From NCBI GenBank assembly GCA_037443565.1, contig JBBIOB010000010.1, positions 1,329 through 65,328 of the forward strand: a DNA stretch of 64,000 nt, given 5' to 3'. Numbering within the stretch: position 1 is the first letter of the stretch; every line of letters starts with the position of its first letter. The notes below the pieces were generated by a model. The model was given only the letters and a program-made list of their open reading frames with translations. It was not told the DNA's origin and did no database searches. The DNA comes from Armatimonadota bacterium (lineage in GTDB: Bacteria; Sysuimicrobiota; Sysuimicrobiia; Sysuimicrobiales; Humicultoraceae). This document shows, in pieces, positions 8,401 through 57,604 of this stretch. Position numbers and translations under genes: made by a program.

Positions 8401-8591
8401 ACGAACCCGCGCCAGATACCCACCGAAGCGATCGTAGCCTAAAACGGGCCGGCCTCACTCGGGTGACGACCGCAGGCGCACATCCGGATGGCCCCGCGCC
8501 TTAAAACCTTCTTAAACACGGGCGCGCCCGCGCCAAGCATCATGGTGATGCAGGATAGCTTCGCAGTTCATGCGAGTCAACACATCGAGAG

Positions 8592-11045: not shown

Positions 11046-11069
11046 TGGAATCCCTCCCATTCCATCTCG

Positions 11070-12293: not shown

Positions 12294-12336
12294 CGCGTCA
12301 CCTCACAGTCCGTCTCCGAAGGGGCCACTCCAAGGG

Positions 12337-13257: not shown

Positions 13258-13679
13258 GGTGTGAAGTCCGGGTGGAACCGGGATCCGTCGACCCCAGCCT
13301 CCCTGGGCAGTCTTTCCTAGCTGGAGCTCAGTTAGAAGATGCGGGCGATATGATGGCCGCGAAGGCTAGGCCTTCGCGACGCACAGATGCAGTCGCGCGG
13401 GCGGCGGATCCGCCCCCGATGTGGCGAGGTCGGCACGGAGGTGATCTGACTCATGCGGCGACAACCGGTACGTATTGAAGGTGTGTGTAGCACATCGGGA
13501 TCGGCGTGGCAATCGGGTGGCCGCCCGATGCGGGGCTCGCGAGCTGTCCCGACACCTGGTGGCGTCTCTGGTCGCCGGGCACAGCGGAGGTTGACATCCG
13601 TCTCCGATCGGGGATCGGTCCTCCGCCTGATGGTGTCTTCCGCTGAGGCCCGTATACGCTAGGGCCAAATCGGCAGGCA

Positions 13680-17203: not shown

Positions 17204-19519
17204 CTACGCGCCCCAAGAAGAGCCCCAGATGGCCCGAGCAGGGCTTGGATGAAGCGAGACAACGAACTCGCCTAGATCGTAGTCGGTGCGAACACGATCT
17301 ATCTCGACCCCGAGGCGCTTCAGCGCGGCGATCGCGGCGACCGAGTCTTCCTTGACGGTGTCGGCCACAGCCACGACCCCGGCGGGCTTGCCGTCCAGCG
17401 CCACCAGCATCGGCGTCTTGCCCTCCTCCGCCAGGCGGCGCGCCTCGTCCTCGAGCGCGGCGGTCTCAATCCCGGCATCCGCCAGCAGGCGCCGGTTGCC
17501 GATCAGCACCGTCGTGCTGTCCACGGTCGCGCGGATGCCCTTCCCGGTGACGGAATCGAACTCCCTGGGCTCCGCCAGGACGATCCCGCGGGCCTGCGCC
17601 CCGCGCACGATGGCCTCGCCCAGGGGATGCTCTGAGGAGCGCTCCGCGGACGCCACCAGCCGCAGCATCTCCTCCTGCAGCGGCGACCCCACCGGCACCA
17701 CGTCGGTGAGCTCGGGTTTGCCCTTCGTGATCGTCCCGGTCTTGTCCAGGACGATCGTGCGCAGCTTGTGGGCCGTCTCCAGGGCCTCGGCGCTCTTGAT
17801 CAGGATGCCGTTCTCTGCGCCCTTGCCGGTGCCTACCATGATCGAGAGCGGCGTCGCCAGGCCCAGCGCGCAGGGGCAGGCGATGATCAGCACGGTCACC
17901 GAGGTGCCCAGCGCAAAGATGAGGGCCGGGTCAGGGCCGACGTTGAACCAGACCACGAAGGTCCCGATGGCGATGAAGATCACCGCGGGCACGAAGTAGC
18001 TCGACACCAGGTCGACCAGGCGCTGGATGGGCGCCTTCGAGCCCTGAGCCTGCTCCACCAACCGGATGATCTGCGCCAGCATCGTGTCCCTGCCGACCTT
18101 CGTGGCGCGAAACCGGAACGCGCCGGTCTGGTTGATCGTGGCGCCGATGACGACATCCCCGGGGCCCTTCTCCACGGGGATCGACTCGCCGGTCACCATC
18201 GATTCGTCCAGCGTCGAGCGTCCGTTGAGAATCTCGCCGTCCACCGGCACCTTCTCGCCGGGCCGGACGATGACGACGTCGTCGATCCGGACGTTCTCGA
18301 GGGACACCTCCTGCTCCGCGCCGTCGCGCACCACCCGCGCGGTCTTTGCCTGCAGGCCGATGAGCTTGCGGATCGCCTCGCCCGTCCCGGCCTTGGCCCG
18401 CGCCTCGAGCAGCCGGCCGAGCAGGATGAGCGTGATGATGACGCCCACGGCTTCGTAGTACACGGCGCGCAGCGCCTCCGGCAGCACGCCCGGCGCCAGG
18501 GTCACCACCAGGCTGTAGGCATAGGCCGCGGTCGTGCCGAGGGTGATCAGGCTGTTCATGTCCGCGGTGCGGCGCCCCAGCGCCAGCCAGCCTGTCCGGT
18601 GGATGGGCCAGCCGGTGTAGAACATGACCGGCGAGGTGATCACGAGCTGCAGCCAGGCGTTGTGCAGCCACTCGGGGATCCAGGCCAGGCGGAGGACCTC
18701 GCCGCCCATCACGGCCACCACCGTCGGCGCGGTGAGCAGGGCACCGACGAGCACGCGCCGGCTGAGGTCGCGGATCTCCATCCGGCGCGCCTCGGCCTCA
18801 GCATCCTCGGTGTCCTGAGAGCCGGGATCAGGTCGGTCGGCGACCTCGTAGCCGGTCGAGGTGATCGCGCGGTGCAGGGCCTCGGTGGTCACCTGCTGCG
18901 GGTCGTAGGCCACCGTGACGCGCTCGGCGCCGAAGTTCACGTCCACCCGGTCGACACCGGGCAGGTCGGCCAGGGCGGACTCGATGTTCACAACACAGGT
19001 GGGGCAGGTCACGCCGCCGCTGTGGATGGCGAACTCGGCGACGCGGGGCGAGGCGACCGGGCGCATGGGGCCCACGCCGACGGCCTGCGCGACCTCGTGG
19101 GCGTGCGCGTCCGCGCGCTCCGGCGCCGACGGGCCGGCGCCGTTCCCCTGCTCGACGACCAGGGTGCCGTGGAGCATGTTCATGCCGCAGGCGAAGCCAA
19201 ATCGGCCGGCCCTGTCGGGGACGAACTCCACCACGGTCTTGCCGAAGGCGCGCAGCGACTTGCTGATGCCGAAGTCGGGAAACACCACCCGCGCGGTGCA
19301 GTCGCTGCTCTCCTGGCGGTCGAACAGCAGGCGGACGGGCACGCCTTCCCGAACCTGGATGAGATCGGGCGAGTAGCCGCCCTTGACGGTAATCTCGACT
19401 TCCTGGACGCCGCCGCGCACGGCTGCGCGGCGGACCTGCTTGGGACCGAAGAAGTACCAGGCAAGGAAGCCGATCAGCAGTAGCCCGGCTGCGGTGACGA
19501 CAAGTTCCTGGATCCCCAT
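17204..19519 (-). pseudogene. copA: Copper-translocating P1B-type ATPase with N-terminal cupredoxin-like domain and HMA domain, C-terminally truncated (lacks the GDGxNDAP hinge and last two TM helices)
   Basis: N-terminal TM plus plastocyanin-like region (…[14 protein letters not shown]), HMA ([13 protein letters not shown]), TGES, CPC ([12 protein letters not shown]) and DKTGTIT motifs. Homology to the intact paralog stops after …ALKRLGVE (~17283), and lower-GC non-homologous sequence follows. Confidence 0.6.
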
Positions 19520-19919
19520 CCCTCAGTCACCCCTCATAGAGTGCGGGGTATCGTCGTGCAAATTGCCAAGCAGTCGTTAAGGCCGCGGCCCGGGCGACGA
19601 TGGACGTGGCTGCAGTCGCGCGTCTGCTTGACAGCCCGCGGGCAGGCAGGTACAACATCAGGCAAGGAGCAAGTGTCTACGAACACCATGACGCGACGAC
19701 CAGTCTTCGCAGGGGCACGGATCGTGTGCCTCTACTCCCCGCGCCAGTGCATCTGTCCGTGGCGGAGGTCGACGCGCGCCTTCGCCGCACCCCGAAGCTA
19801 GTCGGCTCGCAGGCACTTTCAACACCCCCCCGCGCGCGGCGATCCCGCCACCTGGATTGTGATTGCCGGTTGGGCGCCAGTGCGTCCGCCGCCTGTCATC
19901 GAGCAGAATGGAGGATTCC

Positions 19920-21714: not shown

Positions 21715-22287
21715 TCAGAAGGTGAACCCGGCCACCTCCCAGCGTGTGGTTGCCGTGTGCGGCCTCCGCCAGTTCATGGCAGGCCCGACCGCCATCAGCA
21801 GGATGACCGGCCTGCCGGCGACGATCTCGACGTCGGTCGGCTGCCCGGTCCTCAGCTTCCGCGAGAACTCCACGGTCCATGTTCTTCCCGAGCGGGTCGC
21901 CGCGAAAGCCGCGATGGAATCCTGGCCGCCTCGATCAGCATCCAAGACTGGTGCCCCGATCGGGGCCACCTGAAACAGATCGTAGGCCGCCGGCCGTCCA
22001 TTCTCCATCGCAAAGATATACTTGTCCGCACCGGCCTTGCGGTCGGTCTTCTCGTTCATGAACCCGATCCCGATCCAGCCGTCGCTGTCTCCCCGGAGCC
22101 CCATGTAGATCGTGTCGCCGACGATGCTCCAGGAGAGGGTCATGCCGGAGGCCTCGTGCCTGAGGGTCCTGGCATACTCTCGCTCACCGATCCTGCCGTC
22201 GACCGTCGGCGCCGCCGGTCCCGGCGCACCCTGCACAGTCAGCGCCAGCGCGAGAATCACGGCGGCCACGATACCGAGTACACGCAA
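21715..22287 (-). CDS. Secreted hypothetical protein, possibly DOMON-like beta-sandwich domain
   Basis: Signal peptide, followed by …GDTIYMGLRGDSDGWIGIGFMNEKTDRKAGADKYIF…. The domain call is tentative. Confidence 0.4.
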   Translation of the reverse strand: MRVLGIVAAVILALALTVQGAPGPAAPTVDGRIGEREYARTLRHEASGMTLSWSIVGDTIYMGLRGDSDGWIGIGFMNEKTDRKAGADKYIFAMENGRPAAYDLFQVAPIGAPVLDADRGGQDSIAAFAATRSGRTWTVEFSRKLRTGQPTDVEIVAGRPVILLMAVGPAMNWRRPHTATTRWEVAGFTF

Positions 22288-22478
22288 TGCGATCGCCTCC
22301 CTCTGGCGCAGGCCCAGGTTGCGGCAGAAACCTTCCCCGCCTGCGCGCGTGCCTCATGATCTTCTCAGTTCCACGGATAGACCGCCCACAGGGTTCCCTT
22401 CACCGACATTGGATCGACCTCGATCGAACCACACAGACTGGAGTTCGCCGTCCCTTGGGCGGTACAATCGTGGCGATC

Positions 22479-22904
22479 ATGCGGTCGCGCCCATGGGTGT
22501 TCCTGGCGATTGGCATCCCCTTTGTCGCCCTCGTGGTGTTCGCCTTGCTGCGTGAGGTCGGAGAGGGTCCGGTCAGGCGGCTGCGAGGTGAGTTGTCGGG
22601 CTACGGCGCCATCCTTGTCGCGCTGCATCTGACGCCCGATCCCCCCAGCACCGGCAGCACCGGCATCCACCTGCAGGTGGACGAGATCGCCGGGGCCGCC
22701 GTCCGCGGGGTGACGGTGACCGTGACCGTAGGATCAGATGCCGGGCCGCGCGAGCGGATCAGGCTGGTGCCGGCCGGCGCCGGGGGCCATCAGGGAACGG
22801 TGACGTTCCCGACTGCCGGGCGGTGGTGGATCGACGTGGAAGTCGCCAGAGGCAGGGATGCAATGCGGGTCCGTTTCCCGGTTGACGTACAGGTGAACGA
22901 CTGA
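22479..22904 (+). CDS. Membrane-anchored FixH-like/Ig-like domain protein
   Basis: N-terminal TM helix followed by a beta-rich domain (…GIHLQVDEIAGAAVRGVTVTVTVG…GHQGTVTFPTAGRWWIDVEV…), resembling FixH/YtkA-type proteins found beside copper ATPases. Confidence 0.4.
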   Translation: MRSRPWVFLAIGIPFVALVVFALLREVGEGPVRRLRGELSGYGAILVALHLTPDPPSTGSTGIHLQVDEIAGAAVRGVTVTVTVGSDAGPRERIRLVPAGAGGHQGTVTFPTAGRWWIDVEVARGRDAMRVRFPVDVQVND

Positions 22905-22914
22905 GGGAGCCACC

Positions 22915-23679
22915 GTGCGAGACCTCATGAGCACTTGGTACGGCATCCTGAACGCGATCTACGTCGCCATCCAGGGGCCCTTTGCCGGACTCACCGCCGA
23001 CACCACGGGGAGTGTCATGACCGCAGCCTTACTCGGGATTCTCGGAGCCGCGAGCCCTTGCCAGCTCAGCACAAACGCGACCTCCATCGCCTACGCGCTC
23101 CAGGGCGCGGGCCGGGGGAGCGGGGTGGCCGGCCGGTTGGCCACGGCGTACGTGGCGGGCAAGGCGTTGATGTACACCGGCTTCGGGCTGCTCGCCGTGC
23201 TGATGGGGCAGGGGCTGCAGGCCGCGGCCATCCCCACCATCGTCGTCGCGCGGAAGCTGCTGGGCCCGATGATGATCCTGATCGGCTTGGCGCTGCTCGG
23301 CGCCTGGCAACCCCGCTGGGGCTTCGGGCACCGGGTGAGCGTCCGCCTGCGCGAGCGGGTGGGATCGGGGGGGACGCCGAGCGCGTTCCTCCTGGGTGTC
23401 GCTTTCTCGCTCGCGTTCTGCCCCACGCTGGCGCTGCTCTTCTTCGGCTATGTCATCCCGATGACCGCCGCGAACCCTGCCGGCCCGGCCTACCCCGCGG
23501 TCTTCGCGATCGGCACCACCTTTCCGCTCGTGCTCACGACGATCGTGCTTGCCGCCGGTGCCGATTCTACGGTGGTGATGCAGCGGCTGCCAGCCTGGAG
23601 TCCGTGGCTGCGGCGGATCGGCGGCGGCATCTTCCTGCTGGCCGGGATCAACGACACGCTGCTCTACTGGTTTCTCTGA
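22915..23679 (+). CDS. CcdA/DsbD-family (DsbD_2) transmembrane thiol-disulfide transporter-like protein
   Basis: Polytopic membrane protein with two Cys-Pro motifs in TM segments (GAASPCQLS… and …LAFCPTLALL). Confidence 0.5.
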   Translation: MRDLMSTWYGILNAIYVAIQGPFAGLTADTTGSVMTAALLGILGAASPCQLSTNATSIAYALQGAGRGSGVAGRLATAYVAGKALMYTGFGLLAVLMGQGLQAAAIPTIVVARKLLGPMMILIGLALLGAWQPRWGFGHRVSVRLRERVGSGGTPSAFLLGVAFSLAFCPTLALLFFGYVIPMTAANPAGPAYPAVFAIGTTFPLVLTTIVLAAGADSTVVMQRLPAWSPWLRRIGGGIFLLAGINDTLLYWFL

Positions 23680-24761: not shown

Positions 24762-25118
24762 GCAGTCCTTAACCATCCCGTGGCGCCGCGCGTCTACGAT
24801 GAGGCCAACGCCCGGGGGGGCTGACGCAGGTGCGGACAGGGTTCGACATCGTTGACGCGGAGCGCGGTGCACAGCGCGGTAGAACGACAGCGGCCGCAGG
24901 GCGCGCGGCGTCCGTGCGGGCTGCGGTGCGCCCCGATCACACCTCCTGGATGTTGACGTCCCTGCTGCTCTGGCTGTGCTCACTGCCCTTGATCGGTCTG
25001 CTGGTGTGGCCGCATCTGGGCGCGCGGGTCGCGTTGATCGTGGCCGCAGGCCTGCTCGTCGCCTCGGTCACCGTCTGTTACGCGATCTGCGCCTGGCAGG
25101 TCGCCACGCCCGGAAGAG

Positions 25119-28013
25119 GTGCAGACGATGAGTAGGTCCTACTCCAAACCGATCGCCTTCGGACTACTCGGTTCCATCTCGCTGATTGGGCTCTATCTCG
25201 GCATCGTCCGCGTCGGATCGGCCTCATGGCCCCACACGGTTGATCTCCTGGTGACCGACTGGTACCTGGTCGCCGCCGTGGCCACGGGCTTCGGCATCCA
25301 GATGGGCCTCTTCACGCATCTGCGGCAGGTCCTCCGGCAGAACGGGGGCGTCCGCTCGGCGACGGCGATGGCGGCCGGCGGCACGGCGACATCCACCACC
25401 TCGATGGTCGCCTGCTGCCTGCACCACCTGGCCGAGGTGCTGCCGATCATCGGCCTCTCGGGCGCGGCGGTCTTCTTCACCACGTACAAGGTGCCGGTCA
25501 TCCTGTTCGGACTGGCGACCAACGGGCTCGGGATCGGGATCATGCTGCGGGCGATCCGGCGGCACACCCGGGCGGTCCGCACATCCCCACGCCCATCCCC
25601 CCGTGTATCCCCGCAAGGAGGAACCCCTATGCTGCCAGCAATCGGCTACGAGGTCGGCCGCGAGACGCTGCAGCTGCACATCAGCGGCATGAGCTGCGCG
25701 TCGTGCGTCTCCAGCATCGAGGGCGCGGTCGGCAATCTCCCCGGCGTCGCCCGGGTGACCGTGACGCTCACCGCGGGCACCGCGTCGGTCGAGTACTATC
25801 CGGGGACGGTGACCCCGGCACAGATCAAGAAGACGATCCGCGACCTGGGCTATGAAGCGGCCGAGCGGCTCGACGGCGCCGCGGCGCTGGACCGCGAGCG
25901 CGAGGCGCGCCAACGCGAGATCACCCGGCAGGGGCGGTGGATGCTCGTGGCGTGGCCGCTGGGCTTCCTGGTCATGCTGGGGACCTTTCAGGCGATGTGG
26001 ATCCTCCCCCGCTTCGTGCCCGAGGTCCTGGGCAACCGCCTGGTGCTCTTCGCATTGACCACCCCGATCGTCTTCGGCCCGGGCCTGCAGTTCTTCGTCA
26101 ACTCCTACCGCGGGCTGCGGCTGGGCGTGGCCGACATGAACCTGCTCTACGCCACCGGCATTGGCGCCGCGTACCTCATCGCGATCATCAACACCTTCTG
26201 GCCCGACGCGGGGTTCGGCGGACCGCAGGCCACGTTCTACGAGGCCGCGGCGCTGCTGACCGCGTTCATCATCCTGGGCCGCTACCTCGAGGCGCTGACC
26301 CGGGGCCGGGCGTCTGAGGCGATCCGCAAGCTCATGAGCCTCCAGCCCAAGATCGCCCGGGTCGTCAGGGACGAGGCGGAGATCGAGATCCCCGCCGACG
26401 AGGTCGAGGTCGACGATCTCGTCCTCGTGCGGCCGGGCGAGCGGATCCCGGTCGACGGCGTGGTGCTCGACGGCTACTCGGCGGTGGACCAGTCGATGCT
26501 CACCGGTGAGTCCATGCCCGTCGAGAAGCGTGCCGGCGACGAGGTCATCGGCGGTACGATGAACAAGACCGGCGCGTTCCGCTTCCGCGCCACGCGGGTC
26601 GGCCGGGAGACCGCCCTGGCCCAGATCATCAAGCTCGTCGAGGACGCGCAGGCCAGCAAGGCACCGATCCAGAAGCTCGCTGACCTGGTCGCGGGGAAGT
26701 TCATCTTCTGGGTCCACGTCCTGGCGCTGGCGGTCTTTCTGTTCTGGTTCTTCCTGGGGTACGACGTGTTCTTCAGCCCGCAGACCCGGCTGATGCTCAC
26801 GCCCTACACGCTCGCAGGCGTGGGAGTCTTCGGGTTCGCGCTCCTGATCTCGGTGGCAGTCCTGGTGATCTCGTGCCCCTGCGCCGTCGGCATGGCCACG
26901 CCGAGCGCGATGATGGCCGGCACGGGCAAGGCCGCCGAGCACGGCATCCTGTTCAAGGGCGCAGATGCCGTCGAGGCCGCGAGCCGGCTGACCGCGATCA
27001 TCTTCGACAAGACCGGCACGCTGACGCGCGGCGAGCCCGCAGTAACCGACATCGTGCCGGCGCCCGGTGGCGATGTCGCCGGGCTGCTCGGCCTGGCCGC
27101 CTCGGCCGAGGTGAACTCGGAGCACCCGCTGGGCGAGGCGATCGTGCGGGGGGCGCGCGAGCGCGGTCTCGCGGTGGGCCCGCCCGAGTCATTCGAGGCT
27201 GTCCCGGGGCGCGGGGTCATCGCGCGGTCGGCCGGCCGGGATGTGCTGCTGGGCAACCGCAAGCTCATGGCCGACCGCGCCGTGGCCATCGACGCGATCA
27301 CCGGTGAGGCGGAGCGCCTCGAAGGCGAGGGCAAGACGGTCATGTTCCTGGCGGTCGACGGCCGGCCGGCCGGGCTGATCGCGGTGGCCGACACGCTGAA
27401 GCCGAACTCGATCCAGGCCGTCGGGCTGCTGCGGCGGTTCGGTCTCGAGGTCGCGATGCTCACCGGCGACAACCGGCGCACCGCCGAGGCGATCGCCCGC
27501 CAGCTCGGCATCGACCAGGTCCTGGCCGAGGTGCTCCCGCAGGACAAGGCCTCGGAAGTCCAGCGGCTCCAGGGCGCCGGGCACCGCGTCGCCATGGTCG
27601 GCGACGGCATCAACGACGCCCCGGCCCTGGCCCAGGCCGACGTGGGCATGGCCATCGGCTCGGGGACGGACATCGCCAAGGAGAGCGGCCACGTGGTCCT
27701 GGTGAAGGACGACCTCCGCGACGTCGTCACGACGATCGAGGTGGCGCGCGCGACGATGCGCAAAGTCAAACAGAACCTGTTCTGGGCGTTCGTCTACAAC
27801 GCGGTGACGATCCCGGTCGCGGCGGGGCTGCTCTACACCCGGACGTACCTGGTCGTGAGCCCGGAGATGGCCGCCTTCCTCATGGCTATCAGCTCGCTGA
27901 CGGTGACGCTGAACACCACACTGTTGAAGCGGTTCGTGCCGACGCTTCGGCTCCGGCCCGAGCCGAAGCCTGCGGGCGGTGCGCTGGCACCGGTTGCCGG
28001 GGGGCAGTCATGA
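25119..28013 (+). CDS. copA: Copper-translocating P1B-type ATPase with an unusual in-frame N-terminal ~170-aa four-TM domain; canonical CopA body starts at 25629 with its own RBS
   Basis: HMA ([13 protein letters not shown]), TGES, CPC ([12 protein letters not shown]), [17 protein letters not shown], and TM7/8 residues YN…M…SS typical of Cu(I) ATPases. An AGGAGG RBS precedes an internal ATG at 25629 (MLPAIGYEV…). The upstream 25119..25628 segment encodes TM helices with a CC…HH motif ([14 protein letters not shown]) and is in frame with no stop. Confidence 0.8.
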
Positions 28014-33230: not shown

Positions 33231-35227
33231 CAGCCGCGGGCCGCATGCAGGGCGGGCGCGGGCTTGAGCACGGCGTCCGCCCGCCGGGTCCGGAACGTCA
33301 GCAGCCGGCTCGAGTTAATGACGACGAACAGCGACGCGACGTTGTGGACGATCGCGGCGCCGATGGGGGAGAGCATGCCGCTGCCGGCGAGTGCGATCCC
33401 GACGATGTTCACCGCCACGGCGAACCCCCAGATGTTCTGGCGGATGATGCCGACGGCGCGCCGCGACAGGGCCAGGATCTCGGGCAGGAGCGACAGGTCG
33501 TCGCCCATGAGCGCAATGTCCGCGGACTCGAGCGCGACATCGGTCCCGGCGGCGCCCATCGCCACGCCCACGTTCGCCAGCACCAGGGCCGGCGCATCGT
33601 TGACCCCGTCGCCGATCATGGCCACAACCTCGCCGGCGGCCTGGAGCTCGCGGATCACGTCGAGCTTCTGCTCGGGCAGCAGCCCGGCCCGTGCATCGGT
33701 GATGCCGACCTCGTCCGCGATGGCCTGCGCGGTGACCGCGTGGTCGCCGGTCAGCATCACCACGCGCCGGAGCCCCATCGCCTTCAGGCGCTCGACGATC
33801 GCGCGGGCCTGAGGCCGCACAGCGTCGGCCAGCGCGATCACACCCCAGGGTTCGCCGTCAACCCGCACCACGAGTGCGGTTCGGCCCGCGCGCTCCTGAG
33901 TCAGCAGCGCCTCGCGCGCGGGATCGCCGTCGTCCAGCAGGCGCTGATTGCCGACCTCGATGCGGCGGCCCCCCCACACGGCCTCGACCCCGCGGCCGAA
34001 TGCCATGGTGAACTGCTCGGGATCGGCCAGCCCCAGGCCCGCGGCGCGGCCATGCTCGACGATGGCGCGTCCGAGTGGGTGCTCCGAGCGCATCTCGGCA
34101 ATACCGGCCATCTGCAGCACGTCACGCGGCTGCCGTCCGCCCATCGGCTCGATCGCTGCGACGACGGGCCGGCCCTGGGTGAGCGTGCCCGTCTTGTCGA
34201 ACGCGACGGCGGTCACATGCCCCGCCGCCTCGAGCGCAATGCCCCCCTTGATCAGTCCGCCCCGGCGCGCCGCGTTGCCGACGCTGGCCACGACGGCGGT
34301 CGGCGTGGCCAGGACGAGCGCGCACGGGCAGGCGATCACCAGCACGGCCATCACGCGCAGCAGGTCGTGCGTGAGAAGCCAGACGCCCGCGGCAATGATC
34401 AGGATGATCGGCGTGAAGTGGGCCGCGAACCGGTCGGCCACCTTCTGGGTCGCGCCCTTCTGCTCCTGGGCCGCGCGCACGATCTGAATGATGCGGCCCA
34501 GCGTGGTGTCGCGGCCGACACGGTCGGCCCGCACCACGAGGGCGCCGGTCAGGCTCGTGGTGCCGGCGAACACCTTCGCGCCGGTGGTCTTGTCGGCGGG
34601 CATCGACTCGCCCGTGATCGACGCCTCGGTGATCGACGCCTCGCCCGACAGGATGACGCCGTCCACCGGCATCCGCTCGCCGGGCCGCACGAGAACCCGG
34701 TCGCCCTCCTGGACCTCGCGGACCGGCACCTCCACCCACGCGCCGTTCCGGTCGACGAGCGCCGCATCGGGGGCGAGGCGCACCAGCTCGCGCACGGCGT
34801 GGCGCGTGCGCTGCAGGGTGAGCTCTTCGAGGAACTCGCCGGCGAGCATCATGAACGCCACGACCGCGGCGGCCATGTATTCGCCCAGGTAGGCCGACCC
34901 CAGGATCGCGATGACGACGAGCGTGCCCGCGGTGATGCGGCGCTGCTCGATCATGGTGACCAGCGTGGGGTAGCCGATGGCCGCCCCGCCCAGGAGCATG
35001 GCGATCACGGCGACGTCGAATCCGGCCAGCGCGTCGATGCCCGGGATGAGCGCAATCAGGATCAGCAGCAGCAGGCCGCCGGGGAGCAGCGCGCGGCGCC
35101 ACAGCGCCCGGCCGAGCGGCCAGAAGGGAGCCGTGCGTAAGGTCGCCGACGCACGCGGCCGTTCCGGCACCGCGCCGTGGACATGGTCGTCGTGATCGTG
35201 AAGGATGGCGTGGTCGCCCTCGTGCAC
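33230..35227 (-). CDS. Heavy-metal-translocating P1B-type ATPase with His-rich N-terminus (no HMA CxxC domain); metal specificity uncertain
   Basis: MHEGDHAILHDHDDHVHG N-terminus, TGES, CPC (IACPCALVLATP), DKTGTLT, GDGVNDAPAL. TM7/8 lack the YN/MxxSS signature of Cu(I) pumps (HNVASLFVVINSSRLL). GTG start. Confidence 0.85.
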   Translation of the reverse strand: MHEGDHAILHDHDDHVHGAVPERPRASATLRTAPFWPLGRALWRRALLPGGLLLLILIALIPGIDALAGFDVAVIAMLLGGAAIGYPTLVTMIEQRRITAGTLVVIAILGSAYLGEYMAAAVVAFMMLAGEFLEELTLQRTRHAVRELVRLAPDAALVDRNGAWVEVPVREVQEGDRVLVRPGERMPVDGVILSGEASITEASITGESMPADKTTGAKVFAGTTSLTGALVVRADRVGRDTTLGRIIQIVRAAQEQKGATQKVADRFAAHFTPIILIIAAGVWLLTHDLLRVMAVLVIACPCALVLATPTAVVASVGNAARRGGLIKGGIALEAAGHVTAVAFDKTGTLTQGRPVVAAIEPMGGRQPRDVLQMAGIAEMRSEHPLGRAIVEHGRAAGLGLADPEQFTMAFGRGVEAVWGGRRIEVGNQRLLDDGDPAREALLTQERAGRTALVVRVDGEPWGVIALADAVRPQARAIVERLKAMGLRRVVMLTGDHAVTAQAIADEVGITDARAGLLPEQKLDVIRELQAAGEVVAMIGDGVNDAPALVLANVGVAMGAAGTDVALESADIALMGDDLSLLPEILALSRRAVGIIRQNIWGFAVAVNIVGIALAGSGMLSPIGAAIVHNVASLFVVINSSRLLTFRTRRADAVLKPAPALHAARG

Positions 35228-35269
35228 GGCGTGCCTCCAGGCGCGCGATGCCGGAGCGGTTCAGGCTCC

Positions 35270-40423: not shown

Positions 40424-40711
40424 ATGCCGCGCGGAGGGGATCACGTGCCTCACACGAAGACCAAGCAGGTCATCAACCGCCTGGCCCGCGTGGAGGGCCA
40501 CGTGCGCAGCATCCGCGGCATGGTGGCCGACGGCCGCGCGTGTCCTGAGGTGCTCATCCAGATCGCGGCCGCGCGCAGCGCGCTCGACCAGGCCGCCCGC
40601 GTCCTGCTCGAAGATCACCTGGAACACTGCGTGGTCGAGGCCAAGACCAAAGGCAACGTGGCCTCTGCGGTCGCTGAGTTGAAGGAAGCCCTGGATCGGT
40701 TCATCGGCTGA
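40424..40711 (+). CDS. csoR: CsoR/RcnR-family metal-sensing transcriptional repressor (copper-sensitive operon repressor type)
   Basis: DUF156 fold with Cu(I)-ligand pattern Cys…His-x3-Cys (RACPEV … DHLEHC). Confidence 0.75.
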   Translation: MPRGGDHVPHTKTKQVINRLARVEGHVRSIRGMVADGRACPEVLIQIAAARSALDQAARVLLEDHLEHCVVEAKTKGNVASAVAELKEALDRFIG

Positions 40712-40713
40712 GG

Positions 40714-41502
40714 TCACTCGACCCAGCGGGTCTTCTGCGCCGGGGGAATGCGGCGCCGCTGGGGAACGTGATCGGGATATCCCACGTAGATCGCCCCGGC
40801 GATCCGCCGGTCCGGCGGGATACCGAGAAACTCCAGCAACGGCGCAGACCGGATCAGACCGCCCGTCCGCAGATAGGTCCCCACGCCCAGCCCCGTGGCA
40901 ATCAGGAGCATGTTCTGGATGGCGCACATCGTCGCGCCGAAGTCATCGTCCCTGAGGTCCGGATCTTCGGGCGCGGTGGTCGTGATGACAATGATCGCCG
41001 ACGCCGCCATGGCGTCGGCATAGACCTTATTCAGCACCCGCGCCGCCGCGGGCCCTGACGGATCCGGCAGCAGCGTGCGACGGAACTCACTGCGGATCTC
41101 GGCGAAGCGCTGCTTCCCCTGGCCGGTCAGCACGATGAACTCCCAGGGCTGCGTCAGGTGGTGGTTGGGTGCCCACACCGCCGCCTCCAGCATGCGCTCG
41201 ATGATCTCGCGCGGGACCGGGTCGGGCCGAAACCGCGTCACGCTGCGGCGAAGGCGGATTGCGGCGTCGACCGGCATGGTGATGGCCGCGCCGGTGGGCG
41301 CGTCTGCAACGGGCGCGTCCGGAGAGGCCACGCCGCCCACCGGCGTGCCCGCGCGAGACGCGTAGGCCTCGGGGTCAGCCTCGAAGGCCGTCTTGCAGCC
41401 CAGCGCGCAGAAGTAGTAGGTCCGGCCGTTGTAGACGCTGGTCGCGGCCGCAGCGTCTTCCTCGACTTCCATCTGGCAGACCGGATCGATCGCGATACCC
41501 AT
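40714..41502 (-). CDS. YHS-domain/nitroreductase fusion protein
   Basis: N-terminal YHS metal-binding domain (DPVCQMEV…YNGRTYYFCALGCKTAF) fused to a nitroreductase-family domain (…NHHLTQPWEFIVL…). Confidence 0.7.
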   Translation of the reverse strand: MGIAIDPVCQMEVEEDAAAATSVYNGRTYYFCALGCKTAFEADPEAYASRAGTPVGGVASPDAPVADAPTGAAITMPVDAAIRLRRSVTRFRPDPVPREIIERMLEAAVWAPNHHLTQPWEFIVLTGQGKQRFAEIRSEFRRTLLPDPSGPAAARVLNKVYADAMAASAIIVITTTAPEDPDLRDDDFGATMCAIQNMLLIATGLGVGTYLRTGGLIRSAPLLEFLGIPPDRRIAGAIYVGYPDHVPQRRRIPPAQKTRWVE

Positions 41503-41508
41503 GGAGCG

Positions 41509-42126
41509 CTACCGGTTGTCTGCGACGAGGCGCAGAATCTCGACGATTTGCGGCGCGTGGGCGCCGAAGTTGATGTCCACGCGCTGCGCCCGGATGATCC
41601 CCTGCCGGTCCATGATCACAAAGCCCACGAGCCCCCGCATGGGGCGGCCTTCGGCCGGCAGGTCATACATGCGGGCCACAGTGTAGCCCGGATCGAGCAG
41701 GATCGGAATACTCAAGCCGGACGTCTGCCTGACCAATCGGTTGTTCTCCACCGTGTCCGGGTTGATCACATAGACGTCGGCCAGCGCACGAATCGCCGAC
41801 GCGTGCTTCTCCAGCTCGCCGAGCTGGACGACGCACGGCGGTCAGTAGTAGCCCATGTGCGAGATGACGACGAGCGGCCGGCCCGTGGCGCCCGGGGTCA
41901 CCCGGTGCTCGGCACCGTCACCGTCGCGCAGGACAAACGCGTGACCCTTCATGCCGAGCATCGTGTTCACGTCCACCGCGACCTCGGGCCCGCCGAGCGG
42001 CCCCGGGATCGCCGACGGGCGGGAGCGGGTGCTTTGAACCACATACCAGACGCCGACCAGCACGACCACGACGGCCGCGGCCACCATCCACCTGGCCCGG
42101 CTGTCTCCGACTCCGCGCACTCCCAT
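41509..42126 (-). CDS. Membrane-anchored thioredoxin-fold (TlpA/ResA-like redoxin) protein with an in-frame TGA at the first position of its CxxC motif; selenoprotein candidate (U-P-P-C), or else a nonsense pseudogene
   Basis: Two adjacent same-frame ORFs are separated only by TGA (41842..41844): …RPLVVISHMGYY[TGA]PPCVVQLGELEKHASAIRALADVYVINPD… A hairpin starts 13 nt downstream of the TGA (UCCAGCUC-ggc-GAGCUGGA). Confidence 0.5.
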
Positions 42127-42153
42127 CCCTCCTCAGGCTGTTCCGTGTGGATA

Positions 42154-44514
42154 CTACTCCGGCGGCTCTACCTGGATCGCCGTGTCGAAATCGAACAACC
42201 GGCCGGTCATATAGTGTTGCGGCGCCACCATCAGCAGCCGGTGGAGCCGCCGCGTGGCTTCGCCGATCCACCCTGCAAACGCGGCCTCGCCGTCCGGCGA
42301 CTCCCACATGATAACCCGGCACGCCTCGGCACCGCACGGCACGCGCCGGCCGCGTGCAACTCTGGCCGCGGCACGCAGATACTGCAGCGCGCCGTCGGCG
42401 GCGATGGGGCGCGACATCTCCGCCCGATGCCAGGGCCCGGTGCCCTCGCGCAGGTAGCGCGTGGCGCCGACGAACACCACCTCGACGCCGGTGGACGTCC
42501 GCGCGCGGATCCGATCGGGCCGGACGAGCTCGAGCGAGGTGACAACCAGGCCCCCGCTCCCGTCGCTGATCTGGTCTTCCTCGCGCCATGTCGCCGCGGC
42601 TGCCATCGCGGCCGCAGAAGCCTCCAGCAGCCCGCGCGCGGTTGCGTCCTCCGGCGCCGCGCCTGCCGGCCCCAGACGCAGCGGAAGGCGCGTCGAGGCA
42701 TCCAGCACGCCACGGCGTCGCAGGAGCACCTCGACCTCCCACCATCCCTCCGGCAGGACGACGCCCTCGACCGCGTACCGCCCGGCGCCGGTGCCCGCCG
42801 CGATGTGTGTCGCAGGCCCGAGCTCTTCATCGAGCTTCGTCACGCGCACGAGCACCCGGGCGTCCTCATCAGGCGGCGCGCCGTCTCCGGTCGTCACGGT
42901 GACCTCGAAGCGGTTGGGCCCGGGCCGCGCGGGCTCCACGTCGAGCGCAACCCGCACGTCCCCGTCGAGACCTGCGAGCCGGAGAGCCTGGGCCGCCGTC
43001 GAGGTTGCCAGGCTGACGCGCGCCGGCGGGGTGGCGGTCAGCAGCGCCACCACCACCAGGATGCCCGCGGCCACAGCCGCCTCCGCGCCGCCCAGCCCGA
43101 GGAACCGGCCGACCGGCGAGGCCGGGTCGGGAGCTGTTGGCCCACCGGCCAGGCGCGGCCGGATGAGGAAGCGGTTCACCGCGCCCAGCGCCACCAGCGG
43201 CACGACGAGGAGAAGCTTCACGCCGAGATAGCGGCCGTACGATGTGGCGGTGAAGGCGTCCAGGTGCGGCACGTGCAGCCACGCCGCGTAGACCCCGGTC
43301 GCGGCCATGACCGCGAGGCCCGCGGCCGCCACACCGGAGAAGCGGGGGACGAGTCTTGGGGCCAGGATCGCGCGATCCTCCCGCGGCGCGACAAGGCTGA
43401 CAAGCAGGCAGGCAAGCCCGCCGATCCACACGGCGGCCGCCAGGAGGTGGAGCCAGTCGGTCGCCGCCGCCAGCGGGCCGCTGCCCCACGCGTGGGAGTT
43501 GAGGGTGACCCCGAGCAGCAGCAGCCCGGCCGCCATCGGGCGGACGGCTGCGAGCTCCGGCAGCCTGATGTCCGGGATCTGCGGCAGGATGATCGCGAGC
43601 ATGAGGCTGACGATGCCGTAGACCGCCCCCACCAGCACCACGAGCGCCAGATGATCGCTGCCGGCCAGCGCGGCCGGGCCGCCGAACAGCATCACGATCC
43701 CCACGAGCAGCACGAACCACGAGAGCCCCGCGGCGCGAAGGAGCCGGCCCCAGGGCGCCGACGGCAGCAGCAACAGCGCCGCCATCGCGACGCGAATCAC
43801 GGCGGCCCACCCCGGGTTCGTCCCGGCCGCCATGACCCAGAGGTGGCCGCCGGCAACGACATCGCGCAGCGACGCTTCGGTGAGCGCAAGCACCCGCACG
43901 AGAATCTCGGCGGCGGCGGCGATCACGACCGCGGCCGCGGAGATCACCACGACCACCCGCAGGCGCGCCGCGGCGTCGAGGTCGAGCCGGAGCGCCTCGA
44001 TCGGATCCAGTCCGCGCAGACTGGGCTCGAGCACGAGCCAAGGGAACAGCACGGCTCCGACGAGCAGTGTCACAGCTACGAATCCGGCCCAACGGACGAC
44101 CGCGAGCAGCAGATCCGGGCCGGCCAGACCGCCGAACTGCTCGGGCGGCCGCGCGCCGAGGCCAACGGTGAAGGCGAAGACGCCGCTGGTCGTGTGGCCG
44201 TCCGTCGTGGACAGCGCTCGCCAGCGCACGGTGTAGAATCCGTGCGGCAGGTCCTCGAGCGGGACGATCATCGTCCGCCCATCGGCCGACACCGCCGGCG
44301 GACCCGAGACGCGGGCCCCGGCCGGGTCGGTGACCGTCGCGGTGCTGAACGACGCGTCGACGGACTCGTTGAACCGCAGCTCAACCTGCCGCGGCGCGCG
44401 GTCGAGCGCCGAATTGGCCGCGGGGACAGAGCGCTCGACCAGGCTGTGCGCGGCTGCGGGGACCGCCGCCGCCAGCCAGAGGCCCAGTGCGCACGCCAGC
44501 GCCCTGGCGCTCAC
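42154..44514 (-). CDS. Copper resistance CopC-CopD fusion protein (YcnJ-like), paralog 2
   Basis: CopC domain (HSLVERSVPAANSAL…FYTVRWRALSTTDGHTTSGVFAFTVG), CopD membrane domain, and a conserved C-terminal domain (…CRVIMWESPDGEAAFAGWIG…HRLLM). Confidence 0.75.
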   Translation of the reverse strand: MSARALACALGLWLAAAVPAAAHSLVERSVPAANSALDRAPRQVELRFNESVDASFSTATVTDPAGARVSGPPAVSADGRTMIVPLEDLPHGFYTVRWRALSTTDGHTTSGVFAFTVGLGARPPEQFGGLAGPDLLLAVVRWAGFVAVTLLVGAVLFPWLVLEPSLRGLDPIEALRLDLDAAARLRVVVVISAAAVVIAAAAEILVRVLALTEASLRDVVAGGHLWVMAAGTNPGWAAVIRVAMAALLLLPSAPWGRLLRAAGLSWFVLLVGIVMLFGGPAALAGSDHLALVVLVGAVYGIVSLMLAIILPQIPDIRLPELAAVRPMAAGLLLLGVTLNSHAWGSGPLAAATDWLHLLAAAVWIGGLACLLVSLVAPREDRAILAPRLVPRFSGVAAAGLAVMAATGVYAAWLHVPHLDAFTATSYGRYLGVKLLLVVPLVALGAVNRFLIRPRLAGGPTAPDPASPVGRFLGLGGAEAAVAAGILVVVALLTATPPARVSLATSTAAQALRLAGLDGDVRVALDVEPARPGPNRFEVTVTTGDGAPPDEDARVLVRVTKLDEELGPATHIAAGTGAGRYAVEGVVLPEGWWEVEVLLRRRGVLDASTRLPLRLGPAGAAPEDATARGLLEASAAAMAAAATWREEDQISDGSGGLVVTSLELVRPDRIRARTSTGVEVVFVGATRYLREGTGPWHRAEMSRPIAADGALQYLRAAARVARGRRVPCGAEACRVIMWESPDGEAAFAGWIGEATRRLHRLLMVAPQHYMTGRLFDFDTAIQVEPPE

Positions 44515-45013: not shown

Positions 45014-46690
45014 TCAGCCGAACACCTCGAGGAGACGGCGGAGCCCCTCTCCCGTGTCCCTGCCCAAGACCACCCTGAGCGTTCGGCGGCCGCGCTGCTG
45101 AAGAGCCCGAAGGTCCCCCAGCGCCTGGGCCCGGAGCAGATCCGCGAAGGAGTAGTCTGTCTCCGGTACAGCCAGGGCATCGGCCGGATCGTCAACGAGC
45201 TGCAGGAACACGCCCGTATCGGGTCCGCCCTTGTGGAGCTGCCCCGTGGAGTGGAGGAACCTCGGCCCATAGCCCGCGGTCGTCGCCACCCGGAGGCGAT
45301 CACGGAGCCTCAGTCGGATGTCGGTCAGGACATTGGTGATCTCAGCCGCAGGCGCCAGGTAGGCCTGCAGGCCAATGTAGTCGCCGGTCCGGATGCGCGA
45401 GAGCCAGTCCCGGATGGTCTGCGCCGGCGCCGCGAATTGGTCCACCGCGAGAGCCGCAACTTCACCTGACGGCTGAGCACCCGTTGTCCCTTCCCCCATC
45501 ATCGCCTCGCGGGCCAGGTCCTTGGCGAGCTGGACGTCGGGCTGGTCGAACGGGTTGATGCCCAGCACCGCGCCCGCCGCGGCCGTGGCCACCTCCCAGC
45601 GAAAGAACTCCCCGCCGAGCGCGGATCGCTGCGGCACCCACATGTGGATGACCGGGTGTCCAGCGGCCTCGAGGGCGTCAACGCGGGCGTCCAGATCGCC
45701 CACCGCGTCATCGACCAGCCTGATGTACGCGAAGACGCGGTCCGTGGCGTAGGCCGTCGGCCCGGCGGCGGGCTCATCGCAGACCGGCACGATGCCCCGG
45801 CCGCCCTTGCCCGTGCTCTCGGCGACGAGTTGCTCGATCCAGGCCGGCAGCGACGCCAGCGAGGGCGAGGCGAAGATCGTAAGCTTGTCGCGGCCGGCCA
45901 GCGCGAGCTCACCGAGCGCGGCGCCAAGCGCCAGGCCAGGGTTCTCGTGCGCCGGGACTGACGCGGCGCAGGCATCGGCCATCATCTGACCCCAGCGCAC
46001 GAGCCCCTCGATGTCGCTGCCGATCAGCGCGGCGGGCGCCAGCCCGAACACCGACAGCGCGGAGTACCGGCCGCCGACTTCGGGCGGGGCGAGGAAGGTG
46101 CGTCGGAATCCCCGCTCTCGCGCCTCGCGCGAGAGCGGGGTATTGGGATCGGTGATCGCCACGAAGTGGTCGCCAGGCCTGTCGGCCGCAGCAGCGGTCA
46201 CAGCCCAGAAGTATCTGAAGAACGACAGCGTCTCGGTCGTCGTGCCGGACTTGCTTGAAACAATGAAGAGCGTCCGCCGCACGTCGGTGCGCGCCTTGAC
46301 GGCGCGCACAGCATCGGGATGCGTGCTGTCGAGCACGATCAGCTCGGGCCATCCCGCGGCGTGGCCGAAGGTGGACTGCACCACCTCTGGCGCGAGGCTG
46401 GATCCTCCCATGCCCAGCAGCACGACGTGCTGCACGCCTTCGGCGCGCATCTCATCGGCGAAGGCGGCCAGCGTCTCGAGATCCGCAGTCATCGCCCCCG
46501 GCAGCTCAAGCCAGCCCAGCCGGTCTGCGAGCTCAGGAAGCGGCTGTGGCGACCAGAGCGTGAAGTCCCTCTCCCACAGGCGGCGGCCGAATGCGGTGCG
46601 CTCCCACTCGGCCAGCCTGGCCTCCACGCGCGCGGCGCCTTCGGTGTGCAGTGACAGCGACTGACCGGCGGGCGGCAACAGCGAGCTCAT
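45014..46690 (-). CDS. pgi: Glucose-6-phosphate isomerase (bifunctional-type PGI)
   Basis: PGI signature (FIVSSKSGTTTETL) and SIS domains. Likely start is MSSLLPP near 46690. Confidence 0.8.
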   Translation of the reverse strand: MSSLLPPAGQSLSLHTEGAARVEARLAEWERTAFGRRLWERDFTLWSPQPLPELADRLGWLELPGAMTADLETLAAFADEMRAEGVQHVVLLGMGGSSLAPEVVQSTFGHAAGWPELIVLDSTHPDAVRAVKARTDVRRTLFIVSSKSGTTTETLSFFRYFWAVTAAAADRPGDHFVAITDPNTPLSREARERGFRRTFLAPPEVGGRYSALSVFGLAPAALIGSDIEGLVRWGQMMADACAASVPAHENPGLALGAALGELALAGRDKLTIFASPSLASLPAWIEQLVAESTGKGGRGIVPVCDEPAAGPTAYATDRVFAYIRLVDDAVGDLDARVDALEAAGHPVIHMWVPQRSALGGEFFRWEVATAAAGAVLGINPFDQPDVQLAKDLAREAMMGEGTTGAQPSGEVAALAVDQFAAPAQTIRDWLSRIRTGDYIGLQAYLAPAAEITNVLTDIRLRLRDRLRVATTAGYGPRFLHSTGQLHKGGPDTGVFLQLVDDPADALAVPETDYSFADLLRAQALGDLRALQQRGRRTLRVVLGRDTGEGLRRLLEVFG

Positions 46691-47631
46691 CGGTGTGGTC
46701 TCCTCTCCAGCGGGCCGCAGCGAGTGCACGACGGCTCGCAGGGCTCCACGTGGATCGTGACGTCGGTCCCGGGCAGGACCTCTTCGATGTGGCGCTCGAG
46801 ATCATCGGTCAGCGCGTGGGATTCGCCGACCGTCAGTATCCGGTGCACCACCAGGTGCAGGTCGAGGAAGCGATCGGCCCCGGCCTGACGCGTGCGCATC
46901 GCGTGGTAGTCGACGATCTCGTCCCGGTGCGCGTCCAGGATCGCCTGGATGTTCGCGACGTCGCCGCGCGGCAGCCGCGCATCCATCAGGCCGCCGATCG
47001 ACCGGCGGTAGAGTCCCACCCCCATCCACAGGATGTTGGCGCCCACCAGGATGGCCGCGATCGAGTCCAGCGGTGTCCACCCCGTCGCTGCGACGAGCCC
47101 TACGCCCAGGAGCACCCCGACCGTCGTGAGCACGTCGGACAGCAGGTGCCTGGCCGAGGCCTCCAGCGCGATCGAGCGCTCGGCGCGCGAGATGCGCAGC
47201 AGCACCGCGGCGACGACCAGGTTGGCCAGGCCCGCCGCCGCGAGCAGCGCCAGCCCGAGCGGCAGGTGCTGGAGCGGCTGCGGGTGGATGAGCCGGTTGA
47301 CCGCGACCGCGCCGATCACGATCCCCGCGATGCCGATCATGGCGGCCTCGGTGGCGCTGCTGACGTACTCGGCCTTGGCATGGCCGTATGGATGACGGTC
47401 GTCGGGCGGGCGCGTCGCGACGATCAGGCTGATCAGCGCGATGTTCGCGGCCACCACGTTGACCAGCGACTCGGCGGCGTCGGAGAGAAACGCCACCGAG
47501 CCGGTCACCAGGTAGGCCGCGAGTTTGGTGAGCAGGATGGCCAGGCCGGCGACCAGCGAGATCACGCCAGCCCGGACCTTGAGCGGAGTCGCGGCGGCAG
47601 GCGTCTGCGTGGTCTCCGAGGTCTGTGGCAC
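46687..47631 (-). CDS. Cation diffusion facilitator (CDF) family metal efflux transporter
   Basis: Six-TM CDF core (…LSDAAESLVNVV…HAKAEYVSS…) and a C-terminal cytoplasmic domain. Confidence 0.8.
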   Translation of the reverse strand: MPQTSETTQTPAAATPLKVRAGVISLVAGLAILLTKLAAYLVTGSVAFLSDAAESLVNVVAANIALISLIVATRPPDDRHPYGHAKAEYVSSATEAAMIGIAGIVIGAVAVNRLIHPQPLQHLPLGLALLAAAGLANLVVAAVLLRISRAERSIALEASARHLLSDVLTTVGVLLGVGLVAATGWTPLDSIAAILVGANILWMGVGLYRRSIGGLMDARLPRGDVANIQAILDAHRDEIVDYHAMRTRQAGADRFLDLHLVVHRILTVGESHALTDDLERHIEEVLPGTDVTIHVEPCEPSCTRCGPLERRPHR

Positions 47632-47720
47632 TCCCTCATCTTACGGCGCGGGAGCGGCGCGGGCCAGCGCGTCGAATCATGTTTCTGTAGTGTGATGTCT
47701 CTCCAAACAGGAGGACTCGG

Positions 47721-56808: not shown

Positions 56809-57597
56809 CTATCCTTTCGGCCGGCCTATAGCGACGGCATACAGCGCGCTGGCATGCACACCATCCAGCCCCAGCGCGGCATCCAGCGCGGCGTCGTCCC
56901 AACCGCCGAGGGCCACGGCCCCCAGGCCCAGGGCGGCCCCGGCCAGATATGCGTTCTGCGCCATGTGTCCAGCCTCGAGGAGCACAAAGCGATACCCCCT
57001 GCCCCCATACACCTCGGCCGTACGCTCGAAGACCGCCGCCAGCACGATCAGCAGACCGGCGCGCTCGACGAGCGCCGGGTACGCGCAGGCGGCGAGCAGC
57101 CCGCTCAGGGGCATCGTGGGTTCAGGCAGCATCTCTGCGGCGCCGTGGCGGGAGGGCTCGTAATGGTACGGTCCATGCCCCCGGCCATCGGGCGGCGTCG
57201 GCAGCCAGAAGAAGGTCTCGATCGGATAGCGTGCGCCGGCAGATGGGGCTGTTCGTCTGCGATGCTCTGCGCCGTCGGCAGGCAGCAGGCCGGCCGTCGC
57301 CCACAATATCGTCGACGTCTCCTCCCAGCGCAGCGGCGACCCGGCGAACTCCCTCGCCGACCGCCTGGCCAGCAGCGTGTGCCGCAACGACGCGGAGAGA
57401 CCGTCGCTGCTCAGCGGCTCAGGCAGCGCCAGGAACGGCCGGCGTCGGAACTGCCAGGCAGATGGCCGTTCCATGCGCACGGGCGCCGCGGCCCGACGCC
57501 TGACCTCAGTCCACTCCATGGATCGCCACTTGCTATTCTGGTGAAAGACCATCCAGAGCGGCTGGTCCGGGGCCAGGCGGGCGTCGAACCGCGTCAT
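56809..57597 (-). CDS. SagB-type (nitroreductase-family) FMN dehydrogenase of a TOMM/azoline-forming RiPP pathway
   Basis: Nitroreductase-fold hallmarks (RRSAREF…, …LEAGHMAQNAYLAGAALGLGAVALGG) and a position directly downstream of YcaO. Confidence 0.7.
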   Translation of the reverse strand: MTRFDARLAPDQPLWMVFHQNSKWRSMEWTEVRRRAAAPVRMERPSAWQFRRRPFLALPEPLSSDGLSASLRHTLLARRSAREFAGSPLRWEETSTILWATAGLLPADGAEHRRRTAPSAGARYPIETFFWLPTPPDGRGHGPYHYEPSRHGAAEMLPEPTMPLSGLLAACAYPALVERAGLLIVLAAVFERTAEVYGGRGYRFVLLEAGHMAQNAYLAGAALGLGAVALGGWDDAALDAALGLDGVHASALYAVAIGRPKG

Positions 57598-57604
57598 GGT
57601 CTCC

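Follow-up and report, generated by a model that had tools for sequence, protein, structure and literature searches.

The described selenoproteins closest to the gene analysed here are the peroxiredoxin-like (Prx-like) thiol:disulfide oxidoreductases, a class within PF00578 that carries UxxC or UxxU motifs (U denoting selenocysteine, Sec) and that has been "predicted with high confidence" (PMC13188914). They are distant Prx homologues in which a thioredoxin-like UxxC replaces TxxU (PMC1088965), and the bacterial selenocysteine insertion sequence (SECIS) has as its hallmark a small apical loop with G in the first or second position (PMC1088965; PMC13582414). Here we examine a minus-strand gene with an in-frame UGA in contig JBBIOB010000010.1 of an Armatimonadota bacterium (assembly GCA_037443565.1); "the window" means the whole 64,000-nucleotide stretch that was analysed, positions 1,329 to 65,328 of that contig. 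A preliminary description of this DNA had proposed the UGA as a Sec candidate in a UxxC motif. Conservation of the TGA, its pairing with Cys in distant homologues and a covarying hairpin all support that proposal, and judging from sequence we regard this as a genuine recoded-UGA gene and put at about 0.8 the probability that it encodes a selenoprotein, with the UGA at 41844..41842 read as Sec.

The two adjacent open reading frames (ORFs) at this locus are indeed one frame, as first described: the minus-strand frame 42126..41509 has a sole internal stop, the TGA at 41844..41842 (...RPLVVISHMGYY-[TGA]-PPCVVQLGELEK..., local peptide HMGYY-[TGA]-PPC). Third-position GC is 0.89 in the upstream half and 0.87 in the downstream half, in a window of 70% GC overall, so that both halves look coding. 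When U is replaced by C, the joined protein matches the Pfam families AhpC-TSA (PF00578, 2.4e-13, 50.5 bits against a cut-off of 26) and Redoxin (PF08534, 1.2e-8, 35.3 bits against a cut-off of 26.6), and both matches span the junction. Among all TGAs of the window, only this one lies near a Cys codon (UxxC/CxxU-type) with coding-like sequence in the same frame on both sides. GTG at 42120 may be the start codon and is more likely so than ATG at 42126, since a GGAGG at 42132..42128 sits 7 nt from the GTG and only 1 nt from the ATG. Genetic codes 4 and 25, in which TGA stands for Trp or Gly, were rejected because most genes in the window end in TGA.

Databases hold this family almost exclusively as fragments. 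A first protein search gave 20 relatives, 17 of which start just past the motif (MEQLGEL..., LCVQQLGEL...), while two terminate at ...FHMGIT or ...FHMGLT. The single full-length entry (P0001) has W at the motif position; its DNA reads TGA there, and the W, which comes from the source's translation of that codon, was therefore rejected as evidence for Trp. A profile search extended the family to 58 relatives, all but one of them half-length, N- or C-terminal halves bounded by the TGA codon, and none of the 58 has a Cys form. We fetched the DNA of 30 homologous gene copies (22 distinct) from metagenome-assembled genomes (MAGs) labelled Thermomicrobiales, Chloroflexota, Armatimonadota or "Bacillati bacterium ANGP1" and from many metagenomes. 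In each copy TGA stands at this very codon and the frame is open on either side; the published yardstick asks for a TGA shared, at one and the same position, by two or more different homologues (PMC1088965). The preliminary description had reasoned that orthologues routinely broken at other positions would speak against recoding; in the 30 copies there is no disruption at any other position.

Selection acts on both sides of the codon. In neither half does the ratio of nonsynonymous to synonymous changes (pN/pS) reach 1 in any of the 231 pairs, and the medians are 0.46 upstream and 0.42 downstream, values that understate constraint, as synonymous sites are near saturation. Nor does the C-terminal half look like a gene of its own: beyond the TGA the family shares no start codon, and the position past the second Cys is filled by GTC, GTG, GTT, CTC or CTG; no Shine-Dalgarno-like motif is evident for this half; and the window's nearest in-frame start comes 25 codons further on. 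Gene callers give two ORFs everywhere, TGA is the commonest ordinary stop codon in the window and no Sec machinery is found there, all of which would agree with a true stop, whether in a nonsense pseudogene, through an assembly or base-call error, or between two separate polypeptides. Yet the same TGA recurs in many samples and several lineages with no other lesion, the two halves are similarly constrained, a split would cut a thioredoxin-type fold at its active-site helix, and the stem just past the codon shows freezing of codons at the RNA level together with compensatory changes (see below). We thus regard a true stop as extremely improbable, and the alternative originally offered, a pseudogene or base-call error, falls with it, given a TGA kept across MAGs of different phylum labels and pN/pS below 1 in both halves.

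What the codon replaces can be read from more remote relatives. A search of 1.84 billion representative proteins with P0001 as query returned distant full-length homologues at 25-48% identity, with motifs such as FYMGYFCGLC, FYMGYFCGAC, YWCPVC, YHCTAC and TPCDAC. In a joint alignment the TGA column is Cys, within a CxxC motif, in all nine distant full-length homologues, and the second Cys is invariant; the orthologue check called for at the outset thus yields TGA throughout the close family and Cys outside it. One Actinomycetes sequence at 25% identity (L010) was rejected as a family member, being an ordinary BCP with TPGC.

The preliminary description had further reported a stable hairpin 13 nt downstream of the UGA, compatible with a bacterial SECIS. 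The hairpin and its spacing stand, and its compatibility with a SECIS is strengthened by conservation, compensatory changes and an apical loop that starts with G; its coordinates, given as 41808..41828, were off by 2 nt and should be 41828..41810. Of the window's 1409 TGA triplets, just 0.7% are followed by a perfect hairpin of at least 8 bp that begins 8-20 nt downstream (1.3% for at least 7 bp). Across 19 distinct sequences the consensus fold is a 3-nt loop on a stem of 7 bp, which begins 14 nt past the UGA and whose seven positions are all paired in 19/19; an eighth, outer pair is confined to the window's subclade. The outer pair of the 7-bp stem is G-C in 15 sequences and C-G in four, and an inner pair is G-C in 16 and A-U in three, the three A-U changes spanning two motif subgroups (L014 with U-Q-L-C; L009 and L015 with U-P-P-C). 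No one-sided stem changes occur in the 19 sequences, and the covariation score was reached by none of 500 column shuffles. The loop reads GGN or GUG and thus begins with G in every case, so that this family has the published SECIS feature of a downstream stem-loop with a small G-bearing apical loop. The base 3' of the UGA is C in 18 of the 19.

Codon usage within the stem is equally restricted. The first stem Leu is CTC in 22/22 sequences and the stem Glu is GAG in 21/21; elsewhere in these genes, conserved Leu columns draw on four to five codons, the commonest of which accounts for 41-67%. The second stem Leu is TTG in three sequences and the Gln paired with it is CAA in three, the same three according to the alignment and the pair counts. 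In the window alone, the minimum-energy ViennaRNA fold adds a lower stem (CGCCGUGCGU / ACGCG-UCGGCG; 41794-41840, minus strand) that starts 1 nt after the UGA and that, together with the hairpin, makes an E. coli fdhF-like element of about 47 nt. A local Rfam match to Pseudomonas small RNA P13 was dismissed as noise (18.7 bits against a threshold of 70).

The protein is predicted to be membrane-anchored. Its hydrophobic N-terminal segment is probably a signal-anchor, by which the redox domain would sit on the outside of the cytoplasmic membrane, and a basic-then-hydrophobic N-terminus is also found, by eye, in all full-length homologues. The fold was taken from an AlphaFold model of the homologue P0001, whose input alignment is deep only in the C-terminal half; block means of the predicted local distance difference test are about 80 or more over most of the domain and 61-73 in the loop at residues 140-160. 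Helix alpha-1 begins at the U position, which is residue 81 of that model. The top Foldseek matches are Bcp/PrxQ/AhpC structures (3drn, 3hjp, AhpC), with E about 1e-11 and target-normalised template modelling (TM) scores of 0.83-0.85, while by sequence the best match with a solved structure is ResA of B. subtilis (6e-8), in which U aligns with the first Cys of CEPC. Against BCP, in contrast, U falls on the Ser/Thr of TxxC and C98 on the peroxidatic Cys. The early claim that the TGA occupies the nucleophilic Cys site hence holds with respect to ResA; peroxiredoxins carry Thr there.

The residues that define peroxiredoxins are replaced. The active-site Pro is Met and the Thr is Sec, the family reading H-M-G-x-x-U-x-x-C, and the catalytic Arg of BCP (before the strand ...FxID) aligns with the Met of QMGF, otherwise invariant but replaced by Val in the window (LVGF). 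Two dipeptides never vary in the family, the His-Met that directly precedes the motif and a Pro-Met of the long loop. On this model the protein has a peroxiredoxin-like fold with what would be thioredoxin-like chemistry, and a peroxiredoxin-like fold without the peroxiredoxin Pro, Thr and Arg fits, by its published description, the known class "Prx-like thiol:disulfide oxidoreductase, UxxC" (reference member WP_010940744.1). No NCBIfam model scores above its cut-off for the family; the best sub-threshold match, to "SelL-related redox protein" (NF040769, 22-35 bits against a cut-off of 120), hints at a distant link to the SelL/Prx-like2 selenoprotein group.

Features of the locus are collected in Table 1.

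Table 1. Coordinates, within the window, of the candidate selenoprotein gene, its elements and the adjoining genes
Feature	Position	Strand	Remarks
Predicted selenoprotein coding sequence	41509..42126	-	One frame, 205 codons (Sec codon included) followed by the stop TAG (41511..41509)
In-frame UGA, codon 95, predicted selenocysteine	41842..41844	-	Next base C, i.e. UGA-C
Redox motif U-P-P-C (U95...C98), N-terminus of helix alpha-1	41833..41844	-	Second Cys invariant
SECIS-like hairpin UCCAGCUC-GGC-GAGCUGGA	41810..41828	-	19 nt, 8 bp in the window, starts 13 nt after the UGA
N-terminal hydrophobic segment WMVAAAVVVVLVGVWYVV	42037..42090	-	Residues 13-30, ~18 hydrophobic after Arg residues, read by eye
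CopC-CopD-YtkA fusion, YcnJ-type copper transporter-like	42154..44514	-	27 nt upstream; CopC 8e-22, CopD 4e-21, YtkA 9e-5
YHS (metal-binding)-nitroreductase-like fusion	40714..41502	-	6 nt downstream; Nitroreductase 1.6e-28, YHS 3.2e-15
CsoR-family metal-sensing repressor	40424..40711	+	Convergent; Trns_repr_metal 3.5e-27

Genes related to copper recur around the family. In L002, L008 and L032 (L numbers denote individual loci) a CopCD homologue is no more than 7 kb away, and in L030 the distance is about 9.5 kb; CopCD or a multicopper oxidase is found near seven of 13 non-redundant loci. CcdA/DsbD together with a TlpA-like redoxin occurs near four of these 13 (DsbD/CcdA within 7 kb); in the window the nearest DsbD_2/CcdA-like gene is 18 kb off (22897-23676). 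The clade with U-Q-L-C has a monohaem cytochrome c ORF directly upstream in all 19 loci with enough upstream sequence, and in the gene calls of L001, L002 and L030 the last 4 nt of the cytochrome c gene are also the first 4 nt of the redoxin gene. The window's own group (U-P-P-C or U-G-R-C) is without the cytochrome, and its closest member, L011, has a multicopper oxidase downstream.

Some further arrangements concern the same genes. The fusion of YHS to a nitroreductase/BluB-like domain next to the window gene is unusual, and it may belong to the same copper operon. In the U-Q-L-C clade (L001, L002, L004, L005, L008, L024, L026, L030, L032) a conserved block consists of BNR/Sortilin-Vps10-like repeat proteins 1-3 kb upstream, a monohaem cytochrome c and the putative selenoredoxin, with a BlaI-like repressor, a BlaR/M56 sensor protease and often a TlpA-like CxxC redoxin plus CcdA/DsbD as neighbours. 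Locus L030 (GCA_975103605.1) has two paralogues on one contig, at about 17381-18560 and 9498-10342, each with the TGA and each following its own cytochrome c gene; the C-terminal half of the second copy was left uncalled by annotators.

The window as a whole forms a metal-homeostasis island. Two CopC-CopD fusions are joined there by three P-type ATPases, of which one carries a cupredoxin-like domain at the N-terminus as well as HMA, by a CDF transporter, by the DsbD_2/CcdA-like gene and by a DOMON protein; these genes lie at 6256-8454 (-), 42154-44514 (-), 17207-19522 (-), 25038-28010 (+), 33233-35260 (-), 46690-47640 (-), 22897-23676 (+) and 21718-22353 (-). A DtxR gene is also present. Elsewhere in the window, a YcaO cyclodehydratase (57608-59068) stands between a nitroreductase-family gene (56812-57747) and a weakly ThiF-like one (58936-59925), and this minus-strand cluster (56812-59925) resembles an azoline-forming cluster for ribosomally synthesized and post-translationally modified peptides, of the thiazole/oxazole-modified microcin type. 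A sulfur-transfer cluster at 9616-13365 (-) encodes a ThiF-rhodanese (MoeZ-like) protein, a Sulf_transp membrane protein and a double-rhodanese protein.

If the UGA is read as Sec, the hairpin 13 nt downstream would act as a bacterial SECIS and recruit SelB with Sec-tRNA(Sec) to it, and the product of about 205 residues would have its peroxiredoxin-fold domain held at the membrane's outer face by the signal-anchor. There it may work as a thiol:disulfide oxidoreductase: the selenolate of U95 would attack a substrate disulfide or an oxidised target, Cys98 would resolve the intermediate into a selenylsulfide, and a membrane electron shuttle of the CcdA/DsbD type would re-reduce the active site. 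The window gene would be co-transcribed with the CopC-CopD-YtkA transporter and the YHS-nitroreductase, beside CsoR, and these copper-gene surroundings suggest envelope copper-handling proteins, or copper itself, as likely clients, while the partner in the U-Q-L-C sister clade would probably be its dedicated monohaem cytochrome c. The role we propose is, in broad terms, that of a putative extracytoplasmic selenol/thiol oxidoreductase for copper-handling or cytochrome c partners.

For a protein that does contain Sec, one may also consider other functions, namely a selenium peroxidase in which Sec is the peroxidatic and Cys98 the resolving residue, or a Sco-like protein that binds copper or reduces Cu(II). 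The nearest folds are peroxiredoxins, and Sec needs none of the activation by Thr and Arg that the family has lost; Met occupies the position of the active-site Pro, and Met (Val in the window) that of the Arg. Also in favour are the invariant His90-Met91 before the motif and the Pro-Met of the long loop (Met163), the copper genes that recur nearby and a SCO1-like gene about 600 nt downstream in L001. However, the defining catalytic residues of peroxiredoxins, Pro, Thr and Arg, are missing, several of the Cys homologues have Met91 as well, and the joined protein gives no match to PF02630 (SCO1) at E 0.01 or better, its motif being spaced as UxxC rather than as the CxxxC, accompanied by a distal His, of Sco1/SenC copper chaperones. 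We consider these functions, taken together, unlikely. A more specific version, which strikes us as quite unlikely, is a selenium-dependent copper-handling protein in place of a general disulfide reductase, where Sec95, Cys98, His90-Met91 and Met163 would form a Cu(I) site, or one reducing Cu(II) to Cu(I), on the outer face. Were it true, the CopC-CopD importer next to the gene, or in the sister clade the dedicated cytochrome c, would be served by this site, and the use of selenium would be linked with copper homeostasis in soil Chloroflexota and Armatimonadota-like bacteria.

Several points weigh against the selenoprotein interpretation or the role attached to it. The genes selA, selB and selD and tRNA-Sec are absent from the 64-kb window and from every fetched locus: a Pfam scan of about 45 window ORFs gave no SelA, SelB or SelD, ARAGORN predicted a single tRNA, a tRNA-Val, across 14 loci and none in the window, and Rfam at gathering thresholds had no match in the window. 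The stem overlaps the conserved peptide QLGEL, so that its conservation is partly at the protein level; given the frozen CTC and GAG codons and the linked TTG/CAA changes, protein conservation alone does not explain it. The conserved hairpin is short with a loop of only 3 nt, the whole segment folds barely better than shuffles (z = -1.9), and the extended lower stem was rejected as part of the element, being unconserved, the consensus fold keeping no more than the apical stem of 7 bp. Near some loci, such as L009, there are no copper genes, and we infer the function from neighbourhood and fold alone. Likewise inferred are selenium insertion itself and the protein's topology in the membrane, its electron donor and its substrates, whereas the conservation of the UGA, its pairing with Cys, the covarying hairpin, the fold and the gene neighbourhood are what the analysis shows.

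Sec machinery and other selenoproteins have been reported in MAGs of Armatimonadota and Chloroflexota (PMC13582414). The same report bears on a different outcome of recoding, in which the same SECIS would direct insertion of Cys: a SelC-like tRNA(ReC), charged with Cys and delivered by SelB, would produce an ordinary CxxC redoxin. Genes for tRNA(ReC)-like molecules, which read UGA as Cys given a SECIS, are present in five of five Armatimonadota genomes with UxxU hydrogenases (PMC13582414), the closest named relatives of the window's MurT come from Armatimonadota-labelled MAGs (76-79% identity), and insertion of Sec and of Cys look identical in sequence data. In those genomes, however, the tRNA(ReC) genes co-occur with canonical SelC (PMC13582414), and the present family spans several phylum-level groups without ever having plain TGC or TGT, the simpler code for Cys. 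Such persistence of TGA argues for a benefit specific to Sec, and we hold recoding to Cys to be very unlikely and prefer to read the codon as Sec.

The subfamily is new and uncurated, although the selenoprotein class itself is already well known. Where its half genes are named at all, database labels are "peroxiredoxin", "redoxin domain-containing protein" or "hypothetical protein", and a model built from the present sequences would correct annotation across many soil and rock MAGs. Our understanding of selenocysteine decoding is left unchanged, and the biological point is modest: a probable membrane-anchored UxxC selenoprotein is added to MAGs labelled Chloroflexota/Thermomicrobiales, Armatimonadota and "ANGP1". 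The neighbourhood link to copper transport (CopCD, multicopper oxidase, CsoR) and to cytochrome c nonetheless provides a testable lead on why Sec would be retained.

How the locus compares with known systems can be seen at the level of RNA and of protein. The bacterial SECIS of the E. coli fdhF type is known from work of the Bock laboratory, and its features are summarised in PMC1088965 and PMC13582414. Both it and the present element are stem-loops inside the coding region in a UGA-C context, with an apical loop that begins some 21-22 nt past the UGA, its first base being G; here, in contrast, only a perfect stem of 7-8 bp and a 3-nt loop are conserved, with neither a bulged U nor a conserved lower stem. 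With ResA/TlpA/CcmG (ResA PDB 1st9, 2h1b) the family would share an N-terminal membrane anchor, which is predicted here; U aligns with the first Cys of CEPC, and among its relatives CcdA/DsbD and cytochrome c (maturation) genes are found nearby. It differs in scoring only 15.8-28.1 bits with the ResA model NF002854 (cut-off 170), in a fold nearer to Bcp/PrxQ, and in having Sec, rather than Cys, as the predicted nucleophile. Bcp/PrxQ (e.g. Sulfolobus Bcp1, PDB 3drn) is closest in three-dimensional fold (TM 0.83-0.85, root mean square deviation 2.2 A), and its peroxidatic Cys aligns with the second Cys of UxxC, but the signature PxxxTxxC reads MxxxUxxC and the catalytic Arg is Met or Val, so that this is not a canonical peroxidase.

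The closest agreement is with the Prx-like UxxC class, with which the family has in common the PF00578/PF08534 domain, the peroxiredoxin fold, the predicted Sec in the first position of UxxC, a SECIS-like hairpin in the coding region just past the UGA and the existence of Cys homologues. Features of this subfamily's own are the predicted membrane anchor, the HMGxxUxxC motif and the long QPMG loop. While the class was defined in Deltaproteobacteria and marine samples, the subfamily comes from MAGs of Chloroflexota and Armatimonadota type and from metagenomes, and it differs from the class in adjoining copper or cytochrome c genes.

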